From contig CALRFQ010000004.1 in assembly GCA_943356675.1 (NCBI GenBank), positions 1-52,317 of the forward strand: a stretch of DNA of 52,317 nt, in the 5' to 3' direction. Both the position numbers and the translations under genes were made by a program. This document shows positions 18,169 through 51,487 of the stretch, in pieces (positions within the stretch are counted from its first letter, which is position 1; each line of letters begins with the position of its first letter). The notes beneath the pieces were generated by a model. The model was not told where the DNA came from and ran no database searches. It saw only the letters and a program-made list of their open reading frames with translations. The stretch comes from Candidatus Nomurabacteria bacterium (GTDB lineage Bacteria; Patescibacteriota; Minisyncoccia; Phycocordibacterales; UBA9973).

Positions 18169-19194
18169 ATGAAGAAAAATAATAAAAAGAAAATTCCATA
18201 CCTCACAGCTCTTGTAAAAAAGCTTGCTCCGAAAATCGGTGCGAAGGTAGTAGTGGAGCCAGAGTGGGGAATAACAGCTCAAATAAAATACAAGAATGGC
18301 GTAGTACGGTCACTTCGTATGTATACACTCGATCTCAATCCTATTGCTTCATCTGATATCGCTCGCGATAAAGACTATGCGAAATACTTTATGAAAGAGA
18401 GTGGCTATCCTGTGGCGGAAGGTGATACTGTGTATAGCGACGCTTGGGCAGATGCTATAGGTAGTAATAAGAAACTTTCTTATGGAATTAAATACGCGAA
18501 GAAGCTCAGCTACCCTGTTATAGTGAAGCCAAATAGTAAGAGTATGGGTGTGGGGGTGTGCGTAGCTCACTCTGAAAAGGAACTCACTTCAGCGCTTAAG
18601 GAAATATGGAAAGGCGACAAAATTGCAATCATTGAGCGATATATGCCAGGGCGAGATTATCGGATAGTTGTACTCGATGGGGAAATTATTTCTACATATG
18701 AACGCACACAGCTTTCTGTGGTAGGTGACGGCAAGAATACAATTTTGAAATTACTTGAAATAAAGCAAAAGAATTTCATAAAAGAGAATCGGGATACAAA
18801 AATAAATTTCAAGGACAGGAGAATAAAATTGAAATTAAAAAAACAGAGATACACACTTTCAAGTGTGATTTCAAAAGGGGAGAAAGTATACTTGCTCGAC
18901 AATGCGAATCTTTCGACCGGTGGCGATGCTTCTGATGTGACGCAAACAATTTCAAATAGCTTCAAGAAGATAGCTACAAACCTCACTCGTGATATGGGCC
19001 TACGAATAGCAGGGGTGGATATTATGGTCACGAAGGGGGATATTACAAAAAATGTGAAGAATTGTGAATACTATATTATCGAAATCAATGCTGCTCCAGG
19101 GCTTGATCACTATGTGACTACAGGTCCTGCGCAAAAGAAGATCGTGGAAGCAATGTATCTTAAGGTCCTAAAGGCTCTTGGGAAAAATAAATAA
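18169..19194 (+). CDS. ATP-grasp ligase (similar to the cyanophycin-synthetase N-half / GshF ATP-grasp domain)
   Basis: PVIVKPN…GVGV, IERYMPGRDYRIVV, GDGKNTI, NANLSTGG, AGVDI, EINAAPGL. Confidence 0.85.
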   Translation: MKKNNKKKIPYLTALVKKLAPKIGAKVVVEPEWGITAQIKYKNGVVRSLRMYTLDLNPIASSDIARDKDYAKYFMKESGYPVAEGDTVYSDAWADAIGSNKKLSYGIKYAKKLSYPVIVKPNSKSMGVGVCVAHSEKELTSALKEIWKGDKIAIIERYMPGRDYRIVVLDGEIISTYERTQLSVVGDGKNTILKLLEIKQKNFIKENRDTKINFKDRRIKLKLKKQRYTLSSVISKGEKVYLLDNANLSTGGDASDVTQTISNSFKKIATNLTRDMGLRIAGVDIMVTKGDITKNVKNCEYYIIEINAAPGLDHYVTTGPAQKKIVEAMYLKVLKALGKNK

Positions 19195-19212
19195 AAGGAA
19201 TATAATATACAT

Positions 19213-19542
19213 ATGGTAGATTTAAAGGAATTACAAAAGGAAGTAATAAGAAATAAAATCGAAAAAGGCTTCAATACTAGTGATATGGCGCTTGAATTTT
19301 GCCGTGCTCATGAGGAACTCTCAGAAGCATTCTCAAAGTACAACAAGAATCAGGATGGTGTTGCGGAAGAGTTTGCTGATGTGGCGATATTTCTTCTCGG
19401 CATGTGTGAATCACTTGGCTACGACATGGAGAAAGAATTAGTTAGAAAGATTGAGATAAATAAAAATCGTAAATACATCAAGAGTAAATCTCCAGATGGT
19501 AAAGATGTTTTCATAAGAGTGAAGAGCGATATAGATCCCTGA
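19213..19542 (+). CDS. MazG-like nucleotide pyrophosphohydrolase
   Basis: HEELSE…EEFADV helix motif and KIEINKNR. Confidence 0.8.
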   Translation: MVDLKELQKEVIRNKIEKGFNTSDMALEFCRAHEELSEAFSKYNKNQDGVAEEFADVAIFLLGMCESLGYDMEKELVRKIEINKNRKYIKSKSPDGKDVFIRVKSDIDP

Positions 19543-19544
19543 AT

Positions 19545-19571
19545 AAAAAACAGCCTAACGGCTGTTTTTTT
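19545..19571. terminator. Bidirectional terminator overlapping the folA stop codon
   Basis: AAAAAACAGCC-taac-GGCTGTTTTTT. Confidence 0.8.
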
Positions 19572-20052
19572 CATAGAGTACAAAATCGCAATTGAAATTA
19601 TTTTTCTCATCATGTGTGTGTTGTTCGTGCGAGACTTCTTTCCAGAAGGCAGGGTCTATAATAGGGAAGAATGCATCGGCATCGAAGTTGCCATCCACAT
19701 GTGTGATATAGAGTCTGTCTGCATGGTCCATAGCTTGCTTGTATATCTCTGCGCCACCAATTATGAAGACTTCGTCATTTATATCGTATCTAAATAGATC
19801 TATCGCTTCTGTGAGAGAGTGCACTACTTCTACTCCTTCTGCCACATAGGAAACGTCACGAGTGATTACAATGTTTCTTCTGTTTGGCAGTGGTTTCCCA
19901 ATAGACTCGAAAGTTTTGCGTCCCATTATTACAGGGTGGCCACTTGTCGTATCACGGAAGTGCTTCATATCTATCGGCAAATCCCAAAGAAGTTCATTAT
20001 TCTTCCCGATGGCATTATTTTTACCGATAGCTACGATTATTGAAAGTATCAT
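19555..20052 (-). CDS. folA: Dihydrofolate reductase
   Basis: IGKNNELLWDLPIDMKHF, IMGRKTFESI, LPNRRNIV, IIGGAEIY, DAFFP. Confidence 0.97.
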   Translation of the reverse strand: MILSIIVAIGKNNAIGKNNELLWDLPIDMKHFRDTTSGHPVIMGRKTFESIGKPLPNRRNIVITRDVSYVAEGVEVVHSLTEAIDLFRYDINDEVFIIGGAEIYKQAMDHADRLYITHVDGNFDADAFFPIIDPAFWKEVSHEQHTHDEKNNFNCDFVLYEKNSR

Positions 20053-20053
20053 A

Positions 20054-20335
20054 TTATTTCTTATACATCTTATTTAAAACTTTCGCAAAGCCACCATTCT
20101 TGTCTTGAAGCTCTTTAGAACCTCTGGTAATTGTGCCGATACCAATCTTAAGATCTTCAGCAATAGCCCACTGTTTCTCACCTTTATAAAGCCTATGCAT
20201 TATCTCCCAGCGCTTCGGTAGGGCATTGTATTCGCGGGCAGTAAGTATATCTTCAAGGAATGAGTTAAGTAGTGTAGTGTCCTTCGCAGCCACCATAAAT
20301 GCTTTTATGAGTTCCTCTTTGTAAGTATTTTTCAT
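20054..20335 (-). CDS. TrpR/YerC family transcriptional repressor
   Basis: LTAREYNALPKRWEI…Q..IAEDLKIGIGTITRGSKEL. The 'TITRGS' recognition helix is identical to that of TrpR. 1 nt from folA, so likely co-transcribed. Confidence 0.85.
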   Translation of the reverse strand: MKNTYKEELIKAFMVAAKDTTLLNSFLEDILTAREYNALPKRWEIMHRLYKGEKQWAIAEDLKIGIGTITRGSKELQDKNGGFAKVLNKMYKK

Positions 20336-20374
20336 GTACCCAAATTATACTCCAAAAACCCAGAATTTAAAATA

Positions 20375-20392
20375 CTGCGTACTAGTACGCAG
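20375..20392. promoter_or_regulatory. Perfect 18-bp palindrome CTGCGTACTAGTACGCAG, candidate TrpR-family operator
   Basis: Lies just upstream of the promoter of the TrpR-like gene (-10 at 20344-20349, minus strand). Has an ACTAGT core. Confidence 0.6.
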
Positions 20393-20399
20393 GTATAAA

Positions 20400-20430
20400 A
20401 ATCCCCCGCTTGTTTAGGCCAGCAGGGGAC
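20400..20430 (-). terminator. Probable terminator of 20449..20781
   Basis: Imperfect TCCCCCGCT…AGCAGGGGA stem with a minus-strand T-run. Confidence 0.5.
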
Positions 20431-20448
20431 TCTATTTTTTAGAGAAAA

Positions 20449-20781
20449 TTAAATTTTCACTAGTACACCTTCGGCAATCCATCTATCGATAAATTCCTTC
20501 TCGAAAAAAAGTTTGAGTTCGAATATGAAATATCCGTCTTTTCTTTCTTCAAGATGGTATTCTTGACTGTAATTGATTTTGCCCTCTTCTGTGGATACAT
20601 GCCAGCCGGACCCAGTGTAATAATTAAATTTGGCATCTATTGTTGCCTTATATTTTTTGAAAGAACTAATATCAGGTAGTTCTTGTACCTGGTTTGAAGT
20701 TTTGATTTGGGAGCCTTCATTTACTCCTTCGAAACTTTGATCACCCTGACCTTCAGCTCCTGATATATGATTGATGCACAT
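20449..20781 (-). CDS. Hypothetical protein (110 aa)
   Basis: ORF from ATG 20781 (MCINHISG…), with its own promoter and terminator. No recognised motif. Confidence 0.55.
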   Translation of the reverse strand: MCINHISGAEGQGDQSFEGVNEGSQIKTSNQVQELPDISSFKKYKATIDAKFNYYTGSGWHVSTEEGKINYSQEYHLEERKDGYFIFELKLFFEKEFIDRWIAEGVLVKI

Positions 20782-20804
20782 GTACTTTTTAGGTAGCAAG
20801 TAAA

Positions 20805-20850
20805 TATACTTGCATACTAGTATACTAGTATGCAAGTATAAAAAATGCAA
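20805..20850 (-). promoter_or_regulatory. Promoter TTGCAT-N17-TAGTAT overlapped by a perfect 36-bp palindrome (20805-20840)
   Basis: TATACTTGCATACTAGTA|TACTAGTATGCAAGTATA, containing ACTAGT-AT-ACTAGT. Confidence 0.7.
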
Positions 20851-20855
20851 GGGGA

Positions 20856-20893
20856 TATAGAAAACAGCACATTGTATTGTGCTGTTTTCTATA
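20856..20893 (-). terminator. Terminator downstream of thyA
   Basis: TATAGAAAACAGCACA-ttgtat-TGTGCTGTTTTCTATA. Confidence 0.75.
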
Positions 20894-20914: not shown

Positions 20915-21748
20915 TTATAGTGCTATTTCTAGGCCGTCGATAGGAGGGAGGGGATTGTATTGAGCTTGGAGGTCTCTTAGGATTTCGCCGACCAGTTCTT
21001 CATCTTTTGCCTCAGCACGCTTGAAGGTGTTCTCTGGTAAGTGCAGCTCTATATTCTTGTGGTCATTTGTGCGAGAGATTATTTCATTGGCACCTGCATA
21101 GTGGTTGTCGTAAATGTGAGCGTTTGAAATGGAATGTGTGTATATTCCAGGTTTCACTCCGAGGCGTTGCGCAATCATACATTGAAGAAGTGCGAAGCCG
21201 AAGGTGTCGAAAGGGCAACCGAGTATCATATCGTTTGAGCGGACGATGTTGTGCATATTGAGTCTGCCGCCGATTATGTTTATGGTGTATGTGTATGGGC
21301 AAGGCACGTTCTTCTTGGGTGTGCCTCCGTAGCCATCATCCTTTGGATCCCAAGTTACTATCACTCCATGTCGTGAGCTCGGTTCCTTCTCAAGGAGTTC
21401 TATCGCTTTGCCGAGTTGGTCACGACCGAAGTGGTTACGCCAGCGCCAGCCGTAAGCGGAAGAGAGTGTGCCATCTGGTTCTAGAAATGGGTCCCACATT
21501 TTTGTGAATTTACGAAGGAATGTAGTGTCTTTCTCGCCTTGCACAAACCACACTTGTTCCGCGATTGGGGACTTGAGCGGATTCTTTCTTAGAGTGAGCA
21601 CTGGGAAACCGTCCTTCTCTATGTCGAATTGGAAGGTGAGCCCTGGGATTGCTTTCGTCTTGTGCCCAGTGCGTTCATTGAGTTCTTCCACACCTTCTTC
21701 CATTATTCTCTTAATAATATTTTGGTAGATTGCATCAAATGTTGTCAT
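20915..21748 (-). CDS. thyA: Thymidylate synthase ThyA
   Basis: ERTGHKT, AYGWRWR, DQL, SRH, catalytic PC (NVPCPY), RSNDMILG.PF, NAHIYDNH. The real start is MTTFD at 21748, not 22057. Confidence 0.95.
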   Translation of the reverse strand: MTTFDAIYQNIIKRIMEEGVEELNERTGHKTKAIPGLTFQFDIEKDGFPVLTLRKNPLKSPIAEQVWFVQGEKDTTFLRKFTKMWDPFLEPDGTLSSAYGWRWRNHFGRDQLGKAIELLEKEPSSRHGVIVTWDPKDDGYGGTPKKNVPCPYTYTINIIGGRLNMHNIVRSNDMILGCPFDTFGFALLQCMIAQRLGVKPGIYTHSISNAHIYDNHYAGANEIISRTNDHKNIELHLPENTFKRAEAKDEELVGEILRDLQAQYNPLPPIDGLEIAL

Positions 21749-21778
21749 ATGTTCGATTATACAATAGAATATAAATAT
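21749..21778. promoter_or_regulatory. Back-to-back divergent -10 boxes in a 30-bp spacer
   Basis: Minus-strand TATAAT (21756-21761) lies 7 nt before the thyA ATG. Plus-strand TAGAAT (21765-21770) lies 8 nt before the deaminase ATG. Confidence 0.65.
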
Positions 21779-22267
21779 ATGGAAAACATTAAATACCCGT
21801 ATTTGCCGGAAGGGAAGACTATATTGTATGTGCCGATCTCGAATGTTTTCATGGCGGAAGCAAAGGAGTTTGCTCGGAATAATTCTCTTGATAAAGTAAT
21901 GCCCAATGCAAGTATCTTGGTGAAGGATGGTGTAGTTGCTGGCCGTGGTGCCAATGGAAGCACATATCACGAGACGCATGAGTGTGAGAGGGTGAAGCTC
22001 AAGATGCCAACTGGTGTGGGCTATGAACTCTGCGAAGGTTGCCACCCGAAGAATCATGGAGAGCCAAAGGCAATAAAAAATGCGATAGATAATGGATACG
22101 ATTCAAAAGGTGGAGACATATATCTATGGGGGCACTGGTGGTGCTGTGAGCCATGCTGGAATACTATGATAGAGAATGGGATTAAAGATGTGTATTTGCT
22201 CGAGGATAGTGAGGTGCTATTTAATCGTGAAAATCCTGAGAATGTGATAGGTCATCAATTTGAATAA
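21779..22267 (+). CDS. dCMP deaminase-like zinc-dependent deaminase
   Basis: GANG, CER…GYELC, HGE (HxE) and CEPC (CxxC). Start at MENIK 21779. Confidence 0.8.
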   Translation: MENIKYPYLPEGKTILYVPISNVFMAEAKEFARNNSLDKVMPNASILVKDGVVAGRGANGSTYHETHECERVKLKMPTGVGYELCEGCHPKNHGEPKAIKNAIDNGYDSKGGDIYLWGHWWCCEPCWNTMIENGIKDVYLLEDSEVLFNRENPENVIGHQFE

Positions 22268-22359: not shown

Positions 22360-23610
22360 ATGAGTACACGAGATAACGAAGTTTTTGATGCAATTGCAGG
22401 GGAGGCTATTAGACAAAGAGATGGACTAGAACTTATTCCTTCTGAGAACTACGTGTCCAAGGCTGTGCTTGAGGCCAATGGTTCGATAATGACAAATAAA
22501 TATTCTGAAGGTTACCCAGGCCGCAGATACTATGGTGGTCAAGAATACACAGACATAGTGGAGAGAATAGCAATTGAAAGAATTTGTAAGTTATTTGATT
22601 GTAAGTTTGCAAATGTTCAGCCTCACTCTGGTGCTCCTGCGAACCTCGCAGTATACGCTGCTCTCCTTGAGCCGGGTGATACAGTGATGGGTATGGATCT
22701 ATCCCACGGAGGCCACCTCACTCACGGCCATCCGATGACTCTTCCTGCGAAGATATACAAATTCGTGACTTACAAAATGAAAGACCCAGAGACTGGCGAG
22801 ATTGATTACGATGATATGCTACGCGTGGCTCGTGAAGAAAAGCCAAAATTAATTATTGCTGGATTTTCTGCATACCCTCGAACTCTCAATTACAAAAAGT
22901 TTGTGGAGATTGCAAAAGAAGTGGGAGCTATCACCATGGCAGACATGGCGCACATAGCAGGGCTCATTGCTGGAAAGGCAGCACGCAATCCATTTGAAGA
23001 TGGATTCGACATCATCACTTCCACTACTCACAAGACTCTTCGTGGTCCACGCGGAGGAATAATCCTTACTCGTGAGAGTGAAGAGATTGCTAAGAAGATC
23101 GACAAATCTATCTTCCCAGGAATTCAAGGAGGTCCACATATGCACACGATAGCTGCGAAGGCAGTGGCATTTGGCGAAGCAATGACGCCGGCATATCAAG
23201 AATACGCACAGCAAATTCTTAAAAATGCTAAAGCAATGGAAGAAGTTCTCAAGAAGAATGGTGTGCGCATGATTGGAGGGGGGACAGACAATCATCTAAT
23301 TCTCGCTGATGTTTTCGGCTCACTCGGAGTTACTGGCAAGGAAGCGCAGACAGTGCTTGATGAAGTGGGAATTACTCTCAATATGAATTCCATCGCTGGG
23401 GACACTCGTAAACCTCTTGACCCATCCGGAATCCGCTTCGGCACTCCTGCTATCACAACTCGCGGATTTAAAGAAGCTGATTGTGCGGAAGTTGCTCAGC
23501 TACTCATCGACACTCTCAAGAATAAAGACAATGCTGATATGAAAGTTGAAATTAAAGCCAAGGTGAAAGCCATGGCACAGAAATTCCCAATACCAGAGAG
23601 TTTCGTATAA
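22360..23610 (+). CDS. glyA: Serine hydroxymethyltransferase
   Basis: LIPSENY, NKYSEGYPGRRYYGG, GGHLTHG, and the PLP lysine motif TTHKTLRGPRGG. Confidence 0.98.
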   Translation: MSTRDNEVFDAIAGEAIRQRDGLELIPSENYVSKAVLEANGSIMTNKYSEGYPGRRYYGGQEYTDIVERIAIERICKLFDCKFANVQPHSGAPANLAVYAALLEPGDTVMGMDLSHGGHLTHGHPMTLPAKIYKFVTYKMKDPETGEIDYDDMLRVAREEKPKLIIAGFSAYPRTLNYKKFVEIAKEVGAITMADMAHIAGLIAGKAARNPFEDGFDIITSTTHKTLRGPRGGIILTRESEEIAKKIDKSIFPGIQGGPHMHTIAAKAVAFGEAMTPAYQEYAQQILKNAKAMEEVLKKNGVRMIGGGTDNHLILADVFGSLGVTGKEAQTVLDEVGITLNMNSIAGDTRKPLDPSGIRFGTPAITTRGFKEADCAEVAQLLIDTLKNKDNADMKVEIKAKVKAMAQKFPIPESFV

Positions 23611-50247: not shown

Positions 50248-50562
50248 ATGAATATCGAACTAAGTAAGAGTGAACCGCAGACAATAAGCGTGAGTAAGAA
50301 TAAAGTAATAGTTGCATTGTGTTTCGGAATACTTATTATGATTGCGATGAATCTGTGTATGGCGATGCAATTGCATCATGTAAGGGGTTTTGAAAGAGGT
50401 GGTGAGCGTTTTGGAAGAGGCAGTATGATGTATGGTAAGCAATTTAATAACCAGTATCCTACTATGATGCAGGGTTATAAATTAAATAGTCAGGCATCAG
50501 AAGGAGCTGCAACTATAAATTCTGGAGCTACTTCCGCGACCAAAGTAGCCCCAGCTCAATAA
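50248..50562 (+). CDS. Small membrane-anchored Gly/Met/Arg-rich hypothetical protein
   Basis: One TM helix followed by HHVRGFERGGERFGRGSMMYG. Confidence 0.7.
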   Translation: MNIELSKSEPQTISVSKNKVIVALCFGILIMIAMNLCMAMQLHHVRGFERGGERFGRGSMMYGKQFNNQYPTMMQGYKLNSQASEGAATINSGATSATKVAPAQ

Positions 50563-50591
50563 TAAATAAAAGAGTAATAGCTTCGATTAAT

Positions 50592-50644: not shown

Positions 50645-51487
50645 ATGGAATTCAAATACATAGACATACATGCACATACGAACTTCAAGGCCTTCGATGA
50701 GGACAGGAAGGAGACTATAGAGCGGGCACTAAATGCTGGGGTGATGGTGATGAACGTGGGCACACAGATAGATACCTCTAGGAAAGCCGTGGAAATGGCA
50801 AATGAATTTAATGAGGGAGTGTATGCCATTATAGGGCTCCACCCGATACATACTGGAGCGTCGTATCACGACGTGAAAGAGCTTGGTGAAGAGGGGAAGG
50901 CTTTCACTTCTCGCGGGGAAGAGTTCAATGCGGATGCATACCGAGCACTCCTTAGAGATCCAAAAGTTGTGGCTATTGGTGAATGCGGGCTAGATTACTA
51001 CAGATGCACAGAGGAAACTATTGCGAAGCAGAAGGAAGCTTTCATCGGGCAAATAAAACTTGCGAATGAATTTAAGAAGCCACTAATGCTCCATATTCGA
51101 AATAATCCTGAAGATAAAACTCATGATGCATACTCTGATTCACTAGAACTTTTGAAACAATATGCAGAAGTGAAAGGGGATGTGCACTTCTTCGCAGGTA
51201 GCTTAGAAATTGCGAAAGCATTCGTGGATTTCGGATTTACGATTTCATTTACTGGAGTGCTCACTTTCACTCATGACTATGATGAAGTAGTGAAAGCAAT
51301 CCCGCTTGAGATGATAATGACAGAAACAGATTCGCCATACATCACTCCTGTGCCATACCGCGGCAAGCGCAATGAGCCAATGCACGTGCGTGAAGTAGTA
51401 AAAAGAATCGCCGAAATAAAAGGACTCTCTGAAGAAGAAACAGCTAAGATCCTATTTGCTAATGCTAAGCGAGTATTTGGAATTTAA
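50645..51487 (+). CDS. tatD: TatD family DNase
   Basis: DIHAH, GLHP, AIGECGLDY, H.R, ETDSPY..P.PYRGKRNEP. Confidence 0.95.
   Translation: MEFKYIDIHAHTNFKAFDEDRKETIERALNAGVMVMNVGTQIDTSRKAVEMANEFNEGVYAIIGLHPIHTGASYHDVKELGEEGKAFTSRGEEFNADAYRALLRDPKVVAIGECGLDYYRCTEETIAKQKEAFIGQIKLANEFKKPLMLHIRNNPEDKTHDAYSDSLELLKQYAEVKGDVHFFAGSLEIAKAFVDFGFTISFTGVLTFTHDYDEVVKAIPLEMIMTETDSPYITPVPYRGKRNEPMHVREVVKRIAEIKGLSEEETAKILFANAKRVFGI

Follow-up and report, generated by a model that had tools for sequence, protein, structure and literature searches.

A probable TrpR/operator system with unusual targets in a Candidatus Nomurabacteria genome

We analysed a 52,317-nucleotide stretch of DNA from a Candidatus Nomurabacteria bacterium, hereafter the window, in which a gene of the TrpR family (trpR) is followed by folA and preceded by two palindromes, O1 and O2, that resemble the trp operator of E. 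coli. Comparisons of sequence and predicted fold make it very probable that the 93-amino-acid (aa) product is a genuine TrpR-type, corepressor-dependent dimeric repressor and that it forms with these palindromes a canonical TrpR/operator system, set in a tryptophan-auxotrophic Patescibacteria genome and acting on unusual targets; this judgement holds for the reading as a whole. The source genome (G000; 719,351 bp, 25 contigs, ~38% G+C, rated 98.5% complete) carries the locus on contig C4. Coordinates given without a contig are window positions; G denotes related genomes and L loci of the wider family. Along the minus strand, with falling coordinates, the order is thyA, a terminator, O1, an orphan open reading frame (ORF), a terminator, O2, the trpR promoter, trpR and folA:

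19555-20052, minus strand: folA (dihydrofolate reductase, DHFR, 165 aa; PF00186 DHFR_1, 216 bits)
20054-20335, minus strand: trpR-family repressor, 93 aa (PF01371, 57.5 bits)
20344-20371, minus strand: putative trpR-folA promoter (consensus scan, 10/12 matches)
20371-20397, no strand: candidate operator O2 (18-bp perfect palindrome at 20375-20392 plus imperfect outer half-sites)
20398-20433, minus strand: intrinsic terminator of the orphan ORF (RNA fold -20.2 kcal/mol, z = -3.3)
20449-20781, minus strand: orphan ORF, 110 aa (start at the ATG at 20781)
20805-20840, no strand: candidate operator O1 (36-bp perfect palindrome)
20822-20850, minus strand: putative promoter of the orphan ORF (read by eye)
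20856-20893, minus strand: thyA terminator (16-bp perfect stem, 6-nt loop; RNA fold -22.3 kcal/mol, z = -10.8)
20915-21748, minus strand: thyA (thymidylate synthase, 277 aa; PF00303, 192 bits), the upstream neighbour

We propose that the protein would recognise arrays of RTACT-N8-AGTAY sites overlapping in an 8-bp register, the same grammar of tandem binding as in the E. coli trp operator. At O1, three phased dimer sites over the spacer and -10 box of the orphan ORF promoter would give tight repression. At O2, two weaker sites at the -35 box of trpR would provide autoregulation, with control of folA as a by-product. Tryptophan would have to be imported and the system would report its supply, a plentiful supply shutting the target genes off; the regulator would thus act by repression rather than by activation. 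Transcriptional regulation has hardly been studied in Patescibacteria (the candidate phyla radiation, CPR), and the majority of their genes have no assigned function. With a regulator whose DNA code is readable from what is known of E. coli, regulons become computable across the phylum. It extends a textbook system and does not overturn current understanding.

The TrpR-family protein and its candidate operators

The trpR product, which contains GIGTITRGSKELQ, matches the Pfam Trp_repressor family above its cut-off of 27 bits over residues 15-90, and its best-scoring NCBIfam model is TIGR01321, the TrpR equivalog. An AlphaFold2 monomer model built with 40 homologues has six helices and a pLDDT (predicted local distance difference test) of 93.5. 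Foldseek matched it to the E. coli TrpR entries 6f7g, 2oz9, 1tro and 1trr with template modelling (TM) scores of 0.75-0.79, 1tro and 1trr being operator complexes, and to the TrpR-like entries 3g1c and 3frw with TM scores of 0.82-0.83; the probability was 1.00 for each, yet the E-values were only 3e-3 to 2e-2. With E. coli TrpR the protein shares the Pfam family, the six-helix fold and the helix-turn-helix ...TITRGS..., at 28% identity in the fold alignment. Numbered after E. coli TrpR (translated from NC_000913.3 and aligned to the G000 protein), its residues are D41, T44, R54, W69, I79, G80, T81, T83, R84, G85 and E88, of which T44, R54, T81, R84 and G85 are those of E. coli.

O2 reads CTGCGTACTAGTACGCAG, is perfect over its 18 bp and consists of two overlapping RTACT-N8-AGTAY sites, one arm being shifted by 1 nt. 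O1 reads TATACTTGCATACTAGTATACTAGTATGCAAGTATA and is a perfect 36-bp palindrome with ACTAGT-AT-ACTAGT inside; within it, three ATACT-N8-AGTAT sites follow one another in tandem in an 8-bp register. The E. coli trp promoter-operator (NC_000913.3) has TTGACA, 17 nt and TTAACT, with ACTAGTTAACTAGTACGCAAGT over the -10 box, and the O1 stretch ACTAGTATACTAGTATGCAAGT is identical to this operator (ACTAGT..ACTAGT..GCAAGT) at 19 of 22 positions. Successive TrpR dimers occupy E. coli trpO in 8-bp register, with which the title of PDB entry 1trr ('tandem binding') is consistent. The likeness to the E. coli operators of trp, aroH and trpR extends to the ACTAGT boxes 8 bp apart, the third, degenerate GCAAGT box, the position over the -10 and the presence of a site upstream of the repressor's own gene. 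In contrast, the outer operator base in G000 is A or G. The half-site rule given for TrpR is GNACT with an 8-bp spacer (PMC9413887).

These sites had been picked out in an initial annotation of the window, which gave the sequences and coordinates of both palindromes correctly and quoted the E. coli operator core as ACTAGT-TA-ACTAGT, as it reads in NC_000913.3. Its description of the palindromes as trp-operator-like sites on promoters also stands, O1 lying over the -10 of the orphan ORF and O2 at the -35 of trpR. So does the coupling of a TrpR-like gene to folA: the gap between the trpR stop codon (20054-20056) and the folA ATG (20052) is 1 nt, and both genes are presumably co-transcribed. A genome scan for further palindromes, suggested at that time, yielded five loci by an extended 26-mer, clear of background, as described below.

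Perfect palindromes of at least 14 bp number 100 in the G000 genome. Two more of them have the operator core (C9:2014-2049, 36 bp; C13:12701-12730, 30 bp), and a near-perfect palindrome with this core lies at C5:4457-4482. All five loci fit ATACT-NN-C-RTACTAGTAY-G-NN-AGTAT, that is RTACT-N8-AGTAY units repeated every 8 bp, with three tandem sites each at O1 and C9 and two each at O2, C13 and C5. We searched the genome with this 26-mer consensus, which has 22 specified positions, requiring the central CTAG. Seven overlapping windows at the five loci had 0-5 mismatches (none at C5, one in each of two windows at O1, five at O2). The runners-up were three windows at 6 mismatches, every one within ORFs, and the reversed genome, used as a control, contained no window at 6 mismatches or fewer. 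The hexamer ACTAGT alone is not enriched in G000 (149 observed versus ~140 expected); the operator motif is informative solely in its extended form or by its position. The similarity of these arrays to trpO suggests that they are bound by the TrpR protein.

Sites, covariation and neighbours across the wider family

A profile search returned 584 proteins at E <= 0.001, the few named ones being the Trp repressor or transcriptional regulator of Nomurabacteria, Paceibacterota and Pacebacteria. Among the species-representative genomes scanned, 147 stretches encode a relative, and 80 loci, mostly from Patescibacteria, were kept. These 80 loci (582,058 bp) contain 91 TACTAGTA octamers, of which 75 fall between -250 and +750 of the start of the trpR match, a range that covers 13.5% of the bases. 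Control octamers fell within this range in 0/11, 3/10, 1/7, 2/5 and 1/23 cases. At least one TACTAGTA is present there in 59 of the 80 loci, so that the co-occurrence of palindromes and trpR in relatives, which the initial annotation had put forward as a check, is borne out. The octamers occupy two positions: 41 are just upstream of trpR (-250 to -1) and 31 are at +250 to +499, about 50 bp past the trpR stop codon, on the promoter of the next gene. In G000 and in related loci the sites typically lie between -35 boxes resembling TTGACA, TTGACT or TTGCAT and the -10 box, which they overlap as in E. coli.

Arg69 of TrpR contacts the G of GNACT. It is listed among the DNA-contacting residues in passages of Ashniev et al. 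2022 (PMC9413887). We compared this position with the operators in 79 aligned loci, one locus with fewer than 70 aa having been left out. As related genomes do not provide independent cases, the covariation is given as plain counts. Arg is found in 41 of the 79 loci, and in these G flanks TACTAGTA in 73 of 76 half-sites. In the non-Arg loci, the flanking base is G in 10 and A in 57 of 74 half-sites. Counted by locus, 27 Arg loci have mostly G, 2 half, 0 mostly non-G and 12 are siteless, while the non-Arg loci comprise 1 with mostly G, 6 half, 23 mostly non-G and 8 siteless. The covariation recurs in several named lineages. The G000 protein, in which Trp replaces the Arg69 of E. coli, fits neither class strictly, as its outer operator bases mix A and G. 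Such a pattern is hard to explain unless the homologues read these sites in the docking mode of TrpR, as the sequences suggest. The series of Arg69-G and other-A pairs also tests a structural inference of the 1988 era on dozens of natural variants.

The genes next to trpR were counted in the 63 of 80 loci in which a trpR ORF was called (17 were dropped). Three ORFs on each side were clustered and one representative per cluster was named by Pfam or NCBIfam, with the following results:

TrpS: 30 loci (TIGR00233, 274 bits, cut-off 177)
DnaB: 18 loci (Pfam)
RecR: 15 loci (Pfam)
TrpB: 10 loci (TIGR00263, 575 bits, cut-off 392)
Asp/Glu-type racemase: 9 loci (Pfam and NCBIfam)
TrpE: 4 loci (TIGR00564, 542 bits, cut-off 518)
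TrpD: 4 loci (TIGR01245)
TrpG: 3 loci (Pfam)
folA: 3 loci, plus G000 and L043 (DHFR_1 for the G007 copy, L018; L043 by eye)
AstE-like: 3 loci (Pfam)
pyridoxal-phosphate (PLP) decarboxylase: 3 loci (Pfam)

From the trp-gene neighbours it follows that the family as a whole is a tryptophan-linked repressor. The TrpR proteins of other Patescibacteria (Nomurabacteria, Paceibacterota, Microgenomates, Levybacteria, Roizmanbacteria) are publicly annotated as 'Trp operon repressor'. They resemble the G000 protein in sequence (40-70% identity), pocket residues, TACTAGTA-centred operators and TTGACA-type promoters, and differ in standing beside trpS, trpB, trpE, trpD or trpG. In the clade of G000, in contrast, trpR stands between thyA on one side and folA on the other, and its product would control a slot of changeable cargo. 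In some CPR bacteria a trp repressor gene heads a tRNA-Trp/TrpRS-A operon, as Mukai et al. 2017 (PMC5370408) mention in passing. In the literature outside subscription journals we came across no account of TrpR operators or regulons from CPR, and within that scope the operators appear not to have been described before in this phylum.

The Nomurabacteria-type loci L052-L089 share a conserved order of RecR, DnaB and then trpS-trpR. In these loci a promoter with the operator, located about 50 bp past the end of trpR, would drive a highly variable next gene (trpB, trpE, racemase or unknown ORFs), and no TACTAGTA was found upstream of trpS-trpR.

The TrpR family also includes HisR (YerC/YecD), which shares with the G000 protein the family, the fold, the small size and a palindromic operator of ~20 bp, and which is a precedent for a change of ligand and regulon within this family (Ashniev et al. 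2022, PMC9413887). The G000 protein could in principle be such a HisR-like or other non-tryptophan member that senses histidine or another amino acid. Its best PDB sequence match is 3g1c (E = 1.3e-4), an Eubacterium eligens protein treated as HisR in passages of PMC9413887, and it weakly matches the YerC/YecD model TIGR02531. The score of 25.3 bits, however, is below both the cut-off of that model (42.2) and the 42.1 bits of the TrpR model. The operator consensus and the pocket differ as well. The GNACT sites with 8-bp spacer are unlike the HisR consensus cacTTTA-N6-TAAAgtg, and the same paper counts just two of the nine Trp-contacting residues as conserved in HisR, whereas the G000 protein retains a TrpR-type operator and pocket, with T44, R54, T81, R84 and G85 all kept. 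Finally, the neighbours of its relatives are trp genes and not his genes. We therefore consider a HisR-like identity extremely improbable.

Promoters, terminators and the placement of the sites

The putative trpR promoter is composed of a -35 box TTTAAA (20371-20366), a 16-nt spacer and a -10 box TATAAT (20349-20344), with O2 abutting the -35. Because the -10 ends 8 nt ahead of the ATG, the trpR mRNA is probably leaderless or nearly so, in which it would differ from E. coli. The same layout is present upstream of trpR in L043, L044, L049 and L050. Across these species and G000, the -10 ends 6-8 nt before the trpR ATG. The putative orphan ORF promoter has a -35 box TTGCAT (20850-20845), a 17-nt spacer and a -10 box TAGTAT (20827-20822), and O1 spans its spacer and -10. 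A TTG codon at 20850, which would give a 133-aa version of the orphan ORF, falls in the putative -35 box, and the ATG at 20781 is the likely start. Related loci show the same register of operator and promoter with better boxes, namely TTGACT-17-TAGTAT in G013 and TTGACT in L043. In L095, two ACTAGT-like boxes flank the -10 of TTGACA-17-TATAAT as in E. coli. The order terminator, operator, TATAAT seen at O2 recurs in L043 and L044, and G002 and G009 carry the promoter TTTACA-16-TATAAT 6 nt before the trpR ATG, with the operator filling its spacer. Control of the orphan ORF and autoregulation are thus indicated by position, O1 being placed over the orphan ORF promoter and O2 upstream of trpR. 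No operator site was found in thyA's own promoter region (21749-21778).

An alternative is that the palindromes are terminators, or members of a small family of repeats akin to repetitive extragenic palindromic (REP) elements, whose likeness to the trp operator is coincidental. A terminator scan flags both window palindromes, which fold stably, O1 as a 16-pair stem of -22.4 kcal/mol. The C13 copy lies between convergent stop codons, the C9 copy stands right behind a stop codon, and an unrelated palindrome family on C2 does resemble repeated terminators. However, each window palindrome is preceded by a separate and better terminator, and the U-tracts behind their own hairpins are poor. O2 is not needed as a terminator because that of the orphan ORF, a G+C-rich stem followed by AUUUUUA, stands between the stop codon of this ORF and O2. 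With the putative -10 box within O1, transcription would start midway through the palindrome, and the full hairpin would not be transcribed. The motif is moreover next to trpR in most of the family's loci, commonly between -35 and -10, and neither an RNA nor a REP model explains the covariation of Arg69 with G. A terminator or repeat origin of the sites is thus very improbable.

The C2 family consists of three perfect palindromes of 34-42 bp with the core AACATTCTGGTATTCTGCAGAATACCAGAATGTT (C2:48753-48794, 50545-50580 and 51369-51408). They have A-/T-tract flanks, two of them share downstream sequence, and small hypothetical genes surround them. Their appearance is that of bidirectional terminators in several copies, and they have no relation to the TrpR sites.

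Three operator-like sites lie outside the window. The C9 site follows directly on a stop codon, and 8 nt separate its end from the ATG of a DUF218 gene. The gene that ends at this site (C9:319-2013) encodes a 564-aa cysteine-rich protein with repeated C-x2-C and without a Pfam match, and the contig opens with a partial ORF related to it that has the same C-terminal peptide. The C5 site, a perfect 26-bp match to the operator consensus, is located within a gene for an alt-GlmU-like hexapeptide acetyltransferase (TIGR03991, 233 bits, cut-off 225). A position upstream of a mis-called start was ruled out, since the alignments with the orthologues begin at residue 3 (G012), 13 (G010) and 37 (G007). 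As the orthologues align through that region, the site is truly intragenic and coding. At its position the three orthologues have unrelated sequence and a different peptide, which indicates that the site is new in G000 and has altered the local peptide. It may act as a transcriptional roadblock. The C13 site could serve as a terminator.

Corepressor, targets and the variable slot beside trpR

We take the corepressor pocket of E. coli TrpR to be formed by L41, T44, R54, T81, R84, G85 and S88. In this pocket the amino-acid moiety is held, and the indole ring flanked on both faces, by R54, R84, T44 and T81. Compared with this list, the G000 protein has two changes, L41D and S88E. All 79 homologues have R54, R84 and G85, 78 have T81, 73 have T44 and 66 have E at position 88; position 41 is occupied by D (47 homologues), G (29) or S (3). 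The L41D and S88E changes are common to homologues adjoining trpS, trpB and trpE/G/D, and the G000 pocket is the one that prevails in the trpS-linked group. Both changes therefore arose before trp genes were lost. Since the pocket residues match those of homologues next to trpS, trpB and trpE/G/D, L-tryptophan is fairly likely to be the corepressor.

The regulator and its operators could be real and the effector another compound, such as tryptamine, indole-3-propionate or else p-aminobenzoate (pABA), a folate or a thymidine nucleotide. In favour of this, acidic residues replace L and S at positions 41 and 88, a PLP-dependent decarboxylase adjoins trpR in 3 related loci, and the tryptophan biosynthesis families searched are unmatched in G000. 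According to PDB titles, E. coli TrpR binds 5-methyltryptamine and 3-indolepropionic acid, and variants at T44, T81, N87 and S88 bind indole-3-acetic acid, which implies that positions 44, 81, 87 and 88 tune specificity. Against this, the change at position 41 is found in all 79 homologues and E88 in most of them, including those beside trp genes, the residues R54, R84, T44 and T81 are kept, and no pocket feature suggests a pterin, pABA or a nucleotide. We regard another effector as quite unlikely.

The genes that this TrpR/operator system would control in G000 include no recognisable tryptophan gene. The trpA, trpB, trpC, trpD and trpE families and the Mtr/TnaB-type permease family had no match in the G000 genome, while control genomes responded in every one of these searches. 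The trpS gene is present on contig C1, with no ACTAGT near its upstream region. A link to genes for tryptophan synthesis, transport or charging is thus seen in relatives and not in G000, unlike in E. coli, where such genes are the targets. The regulon would therefore be rewired to the orphan ORF, trpR-folA, the DUF218 gene, an intragenic site and an orphan site, and the target set appears from sequence to have drifted away from tryptophan metabolism. In the clade of G000, an amino-acid repressor may thus outlive its former pathway, a point of interest for the sensing of host nutrients by obligate symbionts.

Nine of the 41 genomes searched, G000 included, have a TrpR homologue, as do 7 of the 24 congeners. 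The clear orthologues are those of G007 (62% identity), G013 (54%), G002 (52%), G009 (51%) and G016 (46%). RTACTAGTAY sites lie within ~2.2 kb of trpR in all five despite differing neighbours:

G007: thyA, site, 293-aa ORF, Asp/Glu-type racemase, 58-aa ORF, trpR, folA
G013: thyX, double site, 79-aa ORF, site, 325-aa ORF, M28-like, AstE-like, site, 255-aa ORF, trpR; no folA
G002 and G009: site, trpR, two sites, AstE-like, 93-aa ORF
G016: site, TrpD-like, BtpA, trpR; near a PLP decarboxylase and two class-Ic tRNA synthetase genes

Of the 10-mers counted genome-wide, 4 of 5 are beside trpR in G013 (within 3.4 kb), 1 of 2 in G007 and 1 of 5 in G016. The closest clade (G000, L043, L044, L045, which is G007, and L046) has the order thyA, operator, variable cargo, trpR, folA. 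trpR and folA are adjacent in L043-L046 as in G000, and trpR-folA is downstream of an operator-bearing promoter in 5 of 5 of these loci. The cargo slot holds DUF6875 in L043, L044 and L046, the 293-aa ORF and racemase in G007, the 255-aa ORF in G013 and the orphan ORF in G000. DUF6875 was found beside trpR in 4 loci (L043, L044, L046, L048) by single-protein scans outside the clusters. Through its operator-controlled slot beside trpR, this family becomes a candidate for a tryptophan-related function, and the operators offer functional hints likewise for the Asp/Glu-type racemase and the AstE-like deacylase.

ThyX does not need DHFR. In G013 a ThyX-domain protein of 448 aa (contig C6; L019, 10632-11978) takes the place of thyA, and the absence of folA beside trpR fits this property. 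Because G013 keeps trpR and operators without an adjacent folA, the trpR island is independent of folA, and this thyX-bearing relative suggests that folA is a passenger of an autoregulated trpR transcript and not the purpose of the system. The initial annotation, which had considered a tie between dTTP synthesis and host nutrient supply, is not supported in this respect. Nor is its suggestion of pABA, folate or thymidine as ligand, in view of the retained T44, R54, T81, R84 and G85 and of L41D and S88E being shared with trp-linked homologues. It had also presented the system as undescribed, whereas the operator grammar, the promoter overlap and the probable autoregulation are those of classical TrpR, with homologues beside trp genes. 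Its statement that the window has no trp genes extends to the whole genome for the trpA-E families. The small regulon that it had proposed is supported in part: the orphan ORF, the repressor gene and folA all lie downstream of operator-bearing promoters, and three further sites on other contigs would enlarge it.

Several observations weigh against a canonical TrpR/operator system. The protein scores 42.1 bits with TIGR01321, under the 67.25 cut-off of this equivalog, and the pocket is altered at positions 41 and 88 compared with E. coli. No TACTAGTA is present within the trpR range in 21 of the 80 loci. Counts of bare RTACTAGTAY in 41 related genomes do not separate trpR-positive from trpR-negative genomes (in trpR-less G010, 10 versus 7 in the reversed control; in G012, 7 versus 9). 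The promoter of the orphan ORF is weak by consensus (7/12) and was missed by the consensus scan. Both window palindromes are scored as terminator-like hairpins. Two of the five G000 sites have no promoter on which they could act: C13 lies where two convergent genes end and has no evident target, and intragenic C5 has no counterpart in the three orthologous genes, one of which is from trpR-positive G007. By eye, no -35 box is recognisable at the C9 site. Lastly, repression of folA under abundant tryptophan lacks an obvious physiological logic.

A broader view, which we find rather unlikely, is that in ultra-small, host-dependent Patescibacteria without tryptophan synthesis TrpR has been retained to sense tryptophan taken up from the host, or a related indole amine, and governs a fast-turnover accessory regulon in place of tryptophan metabolism. 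The indole amine comes into question because of the acidic D41/E88 pocket. The regulon would comprise the slot between thyA and trpR (orphan ORF, DUF6875, racemase, AstE-like deacylase) and folA. It would further include the new operator inside the alt-GlmU-like cell-envelope gene and promoters of toxin-antitoxin-like genes seen by eye in congeners. If so, the episymbiont would couple its envelope, folate and accessory functions to the supply of tryptophan. The congener promoters belong to near-identical cassettes with GTACTAGTAC in G002 (L030, L032, L034) and G009 (L040), which precede pairs of small genes resembling HicB/HicA and MazF/PemK-like genes, as judged by eye only. If this resemblance is real, TrpR in G002 and G009 also governs toxin-antitoxin-like modules.

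The DUF6875 genes (L043:3179-3862, L044:3145-3888, L046:3204-3887 and L048:5230-5949) encode proteins of 227-247 aa with a conserved C-P-F motif. The orphan ORF that takes their place in G000 has no Pfam or NCBIfam match, and tblastn found no relative of it in the G000 genome or in any fetched locus. A chance tblastn match in a DUF6875 gene (E = 0.54) was rejected as a sign of kinship, the hhalign probability being only 2%. In the ESM Atlas its matches were all below 0.85 and its own model had a pLDDT of 0.59, which gave nothing usable.

The folA product scored far under the cut-offs of the trimethoprim-resistance Dfr models. Between L11 and folA (18169-19542) lie a gene of the ATP-grasp type (RimK/Ddl-like) and one for a small MazG-like pyrophosphatase. 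Together with thyA, a dCMP deaminase gene (21779-22267) and glyA (22360-23610) they form a compact thymidylate/nucleotide-hygiene cluster, which is conserved in G007 and G013.

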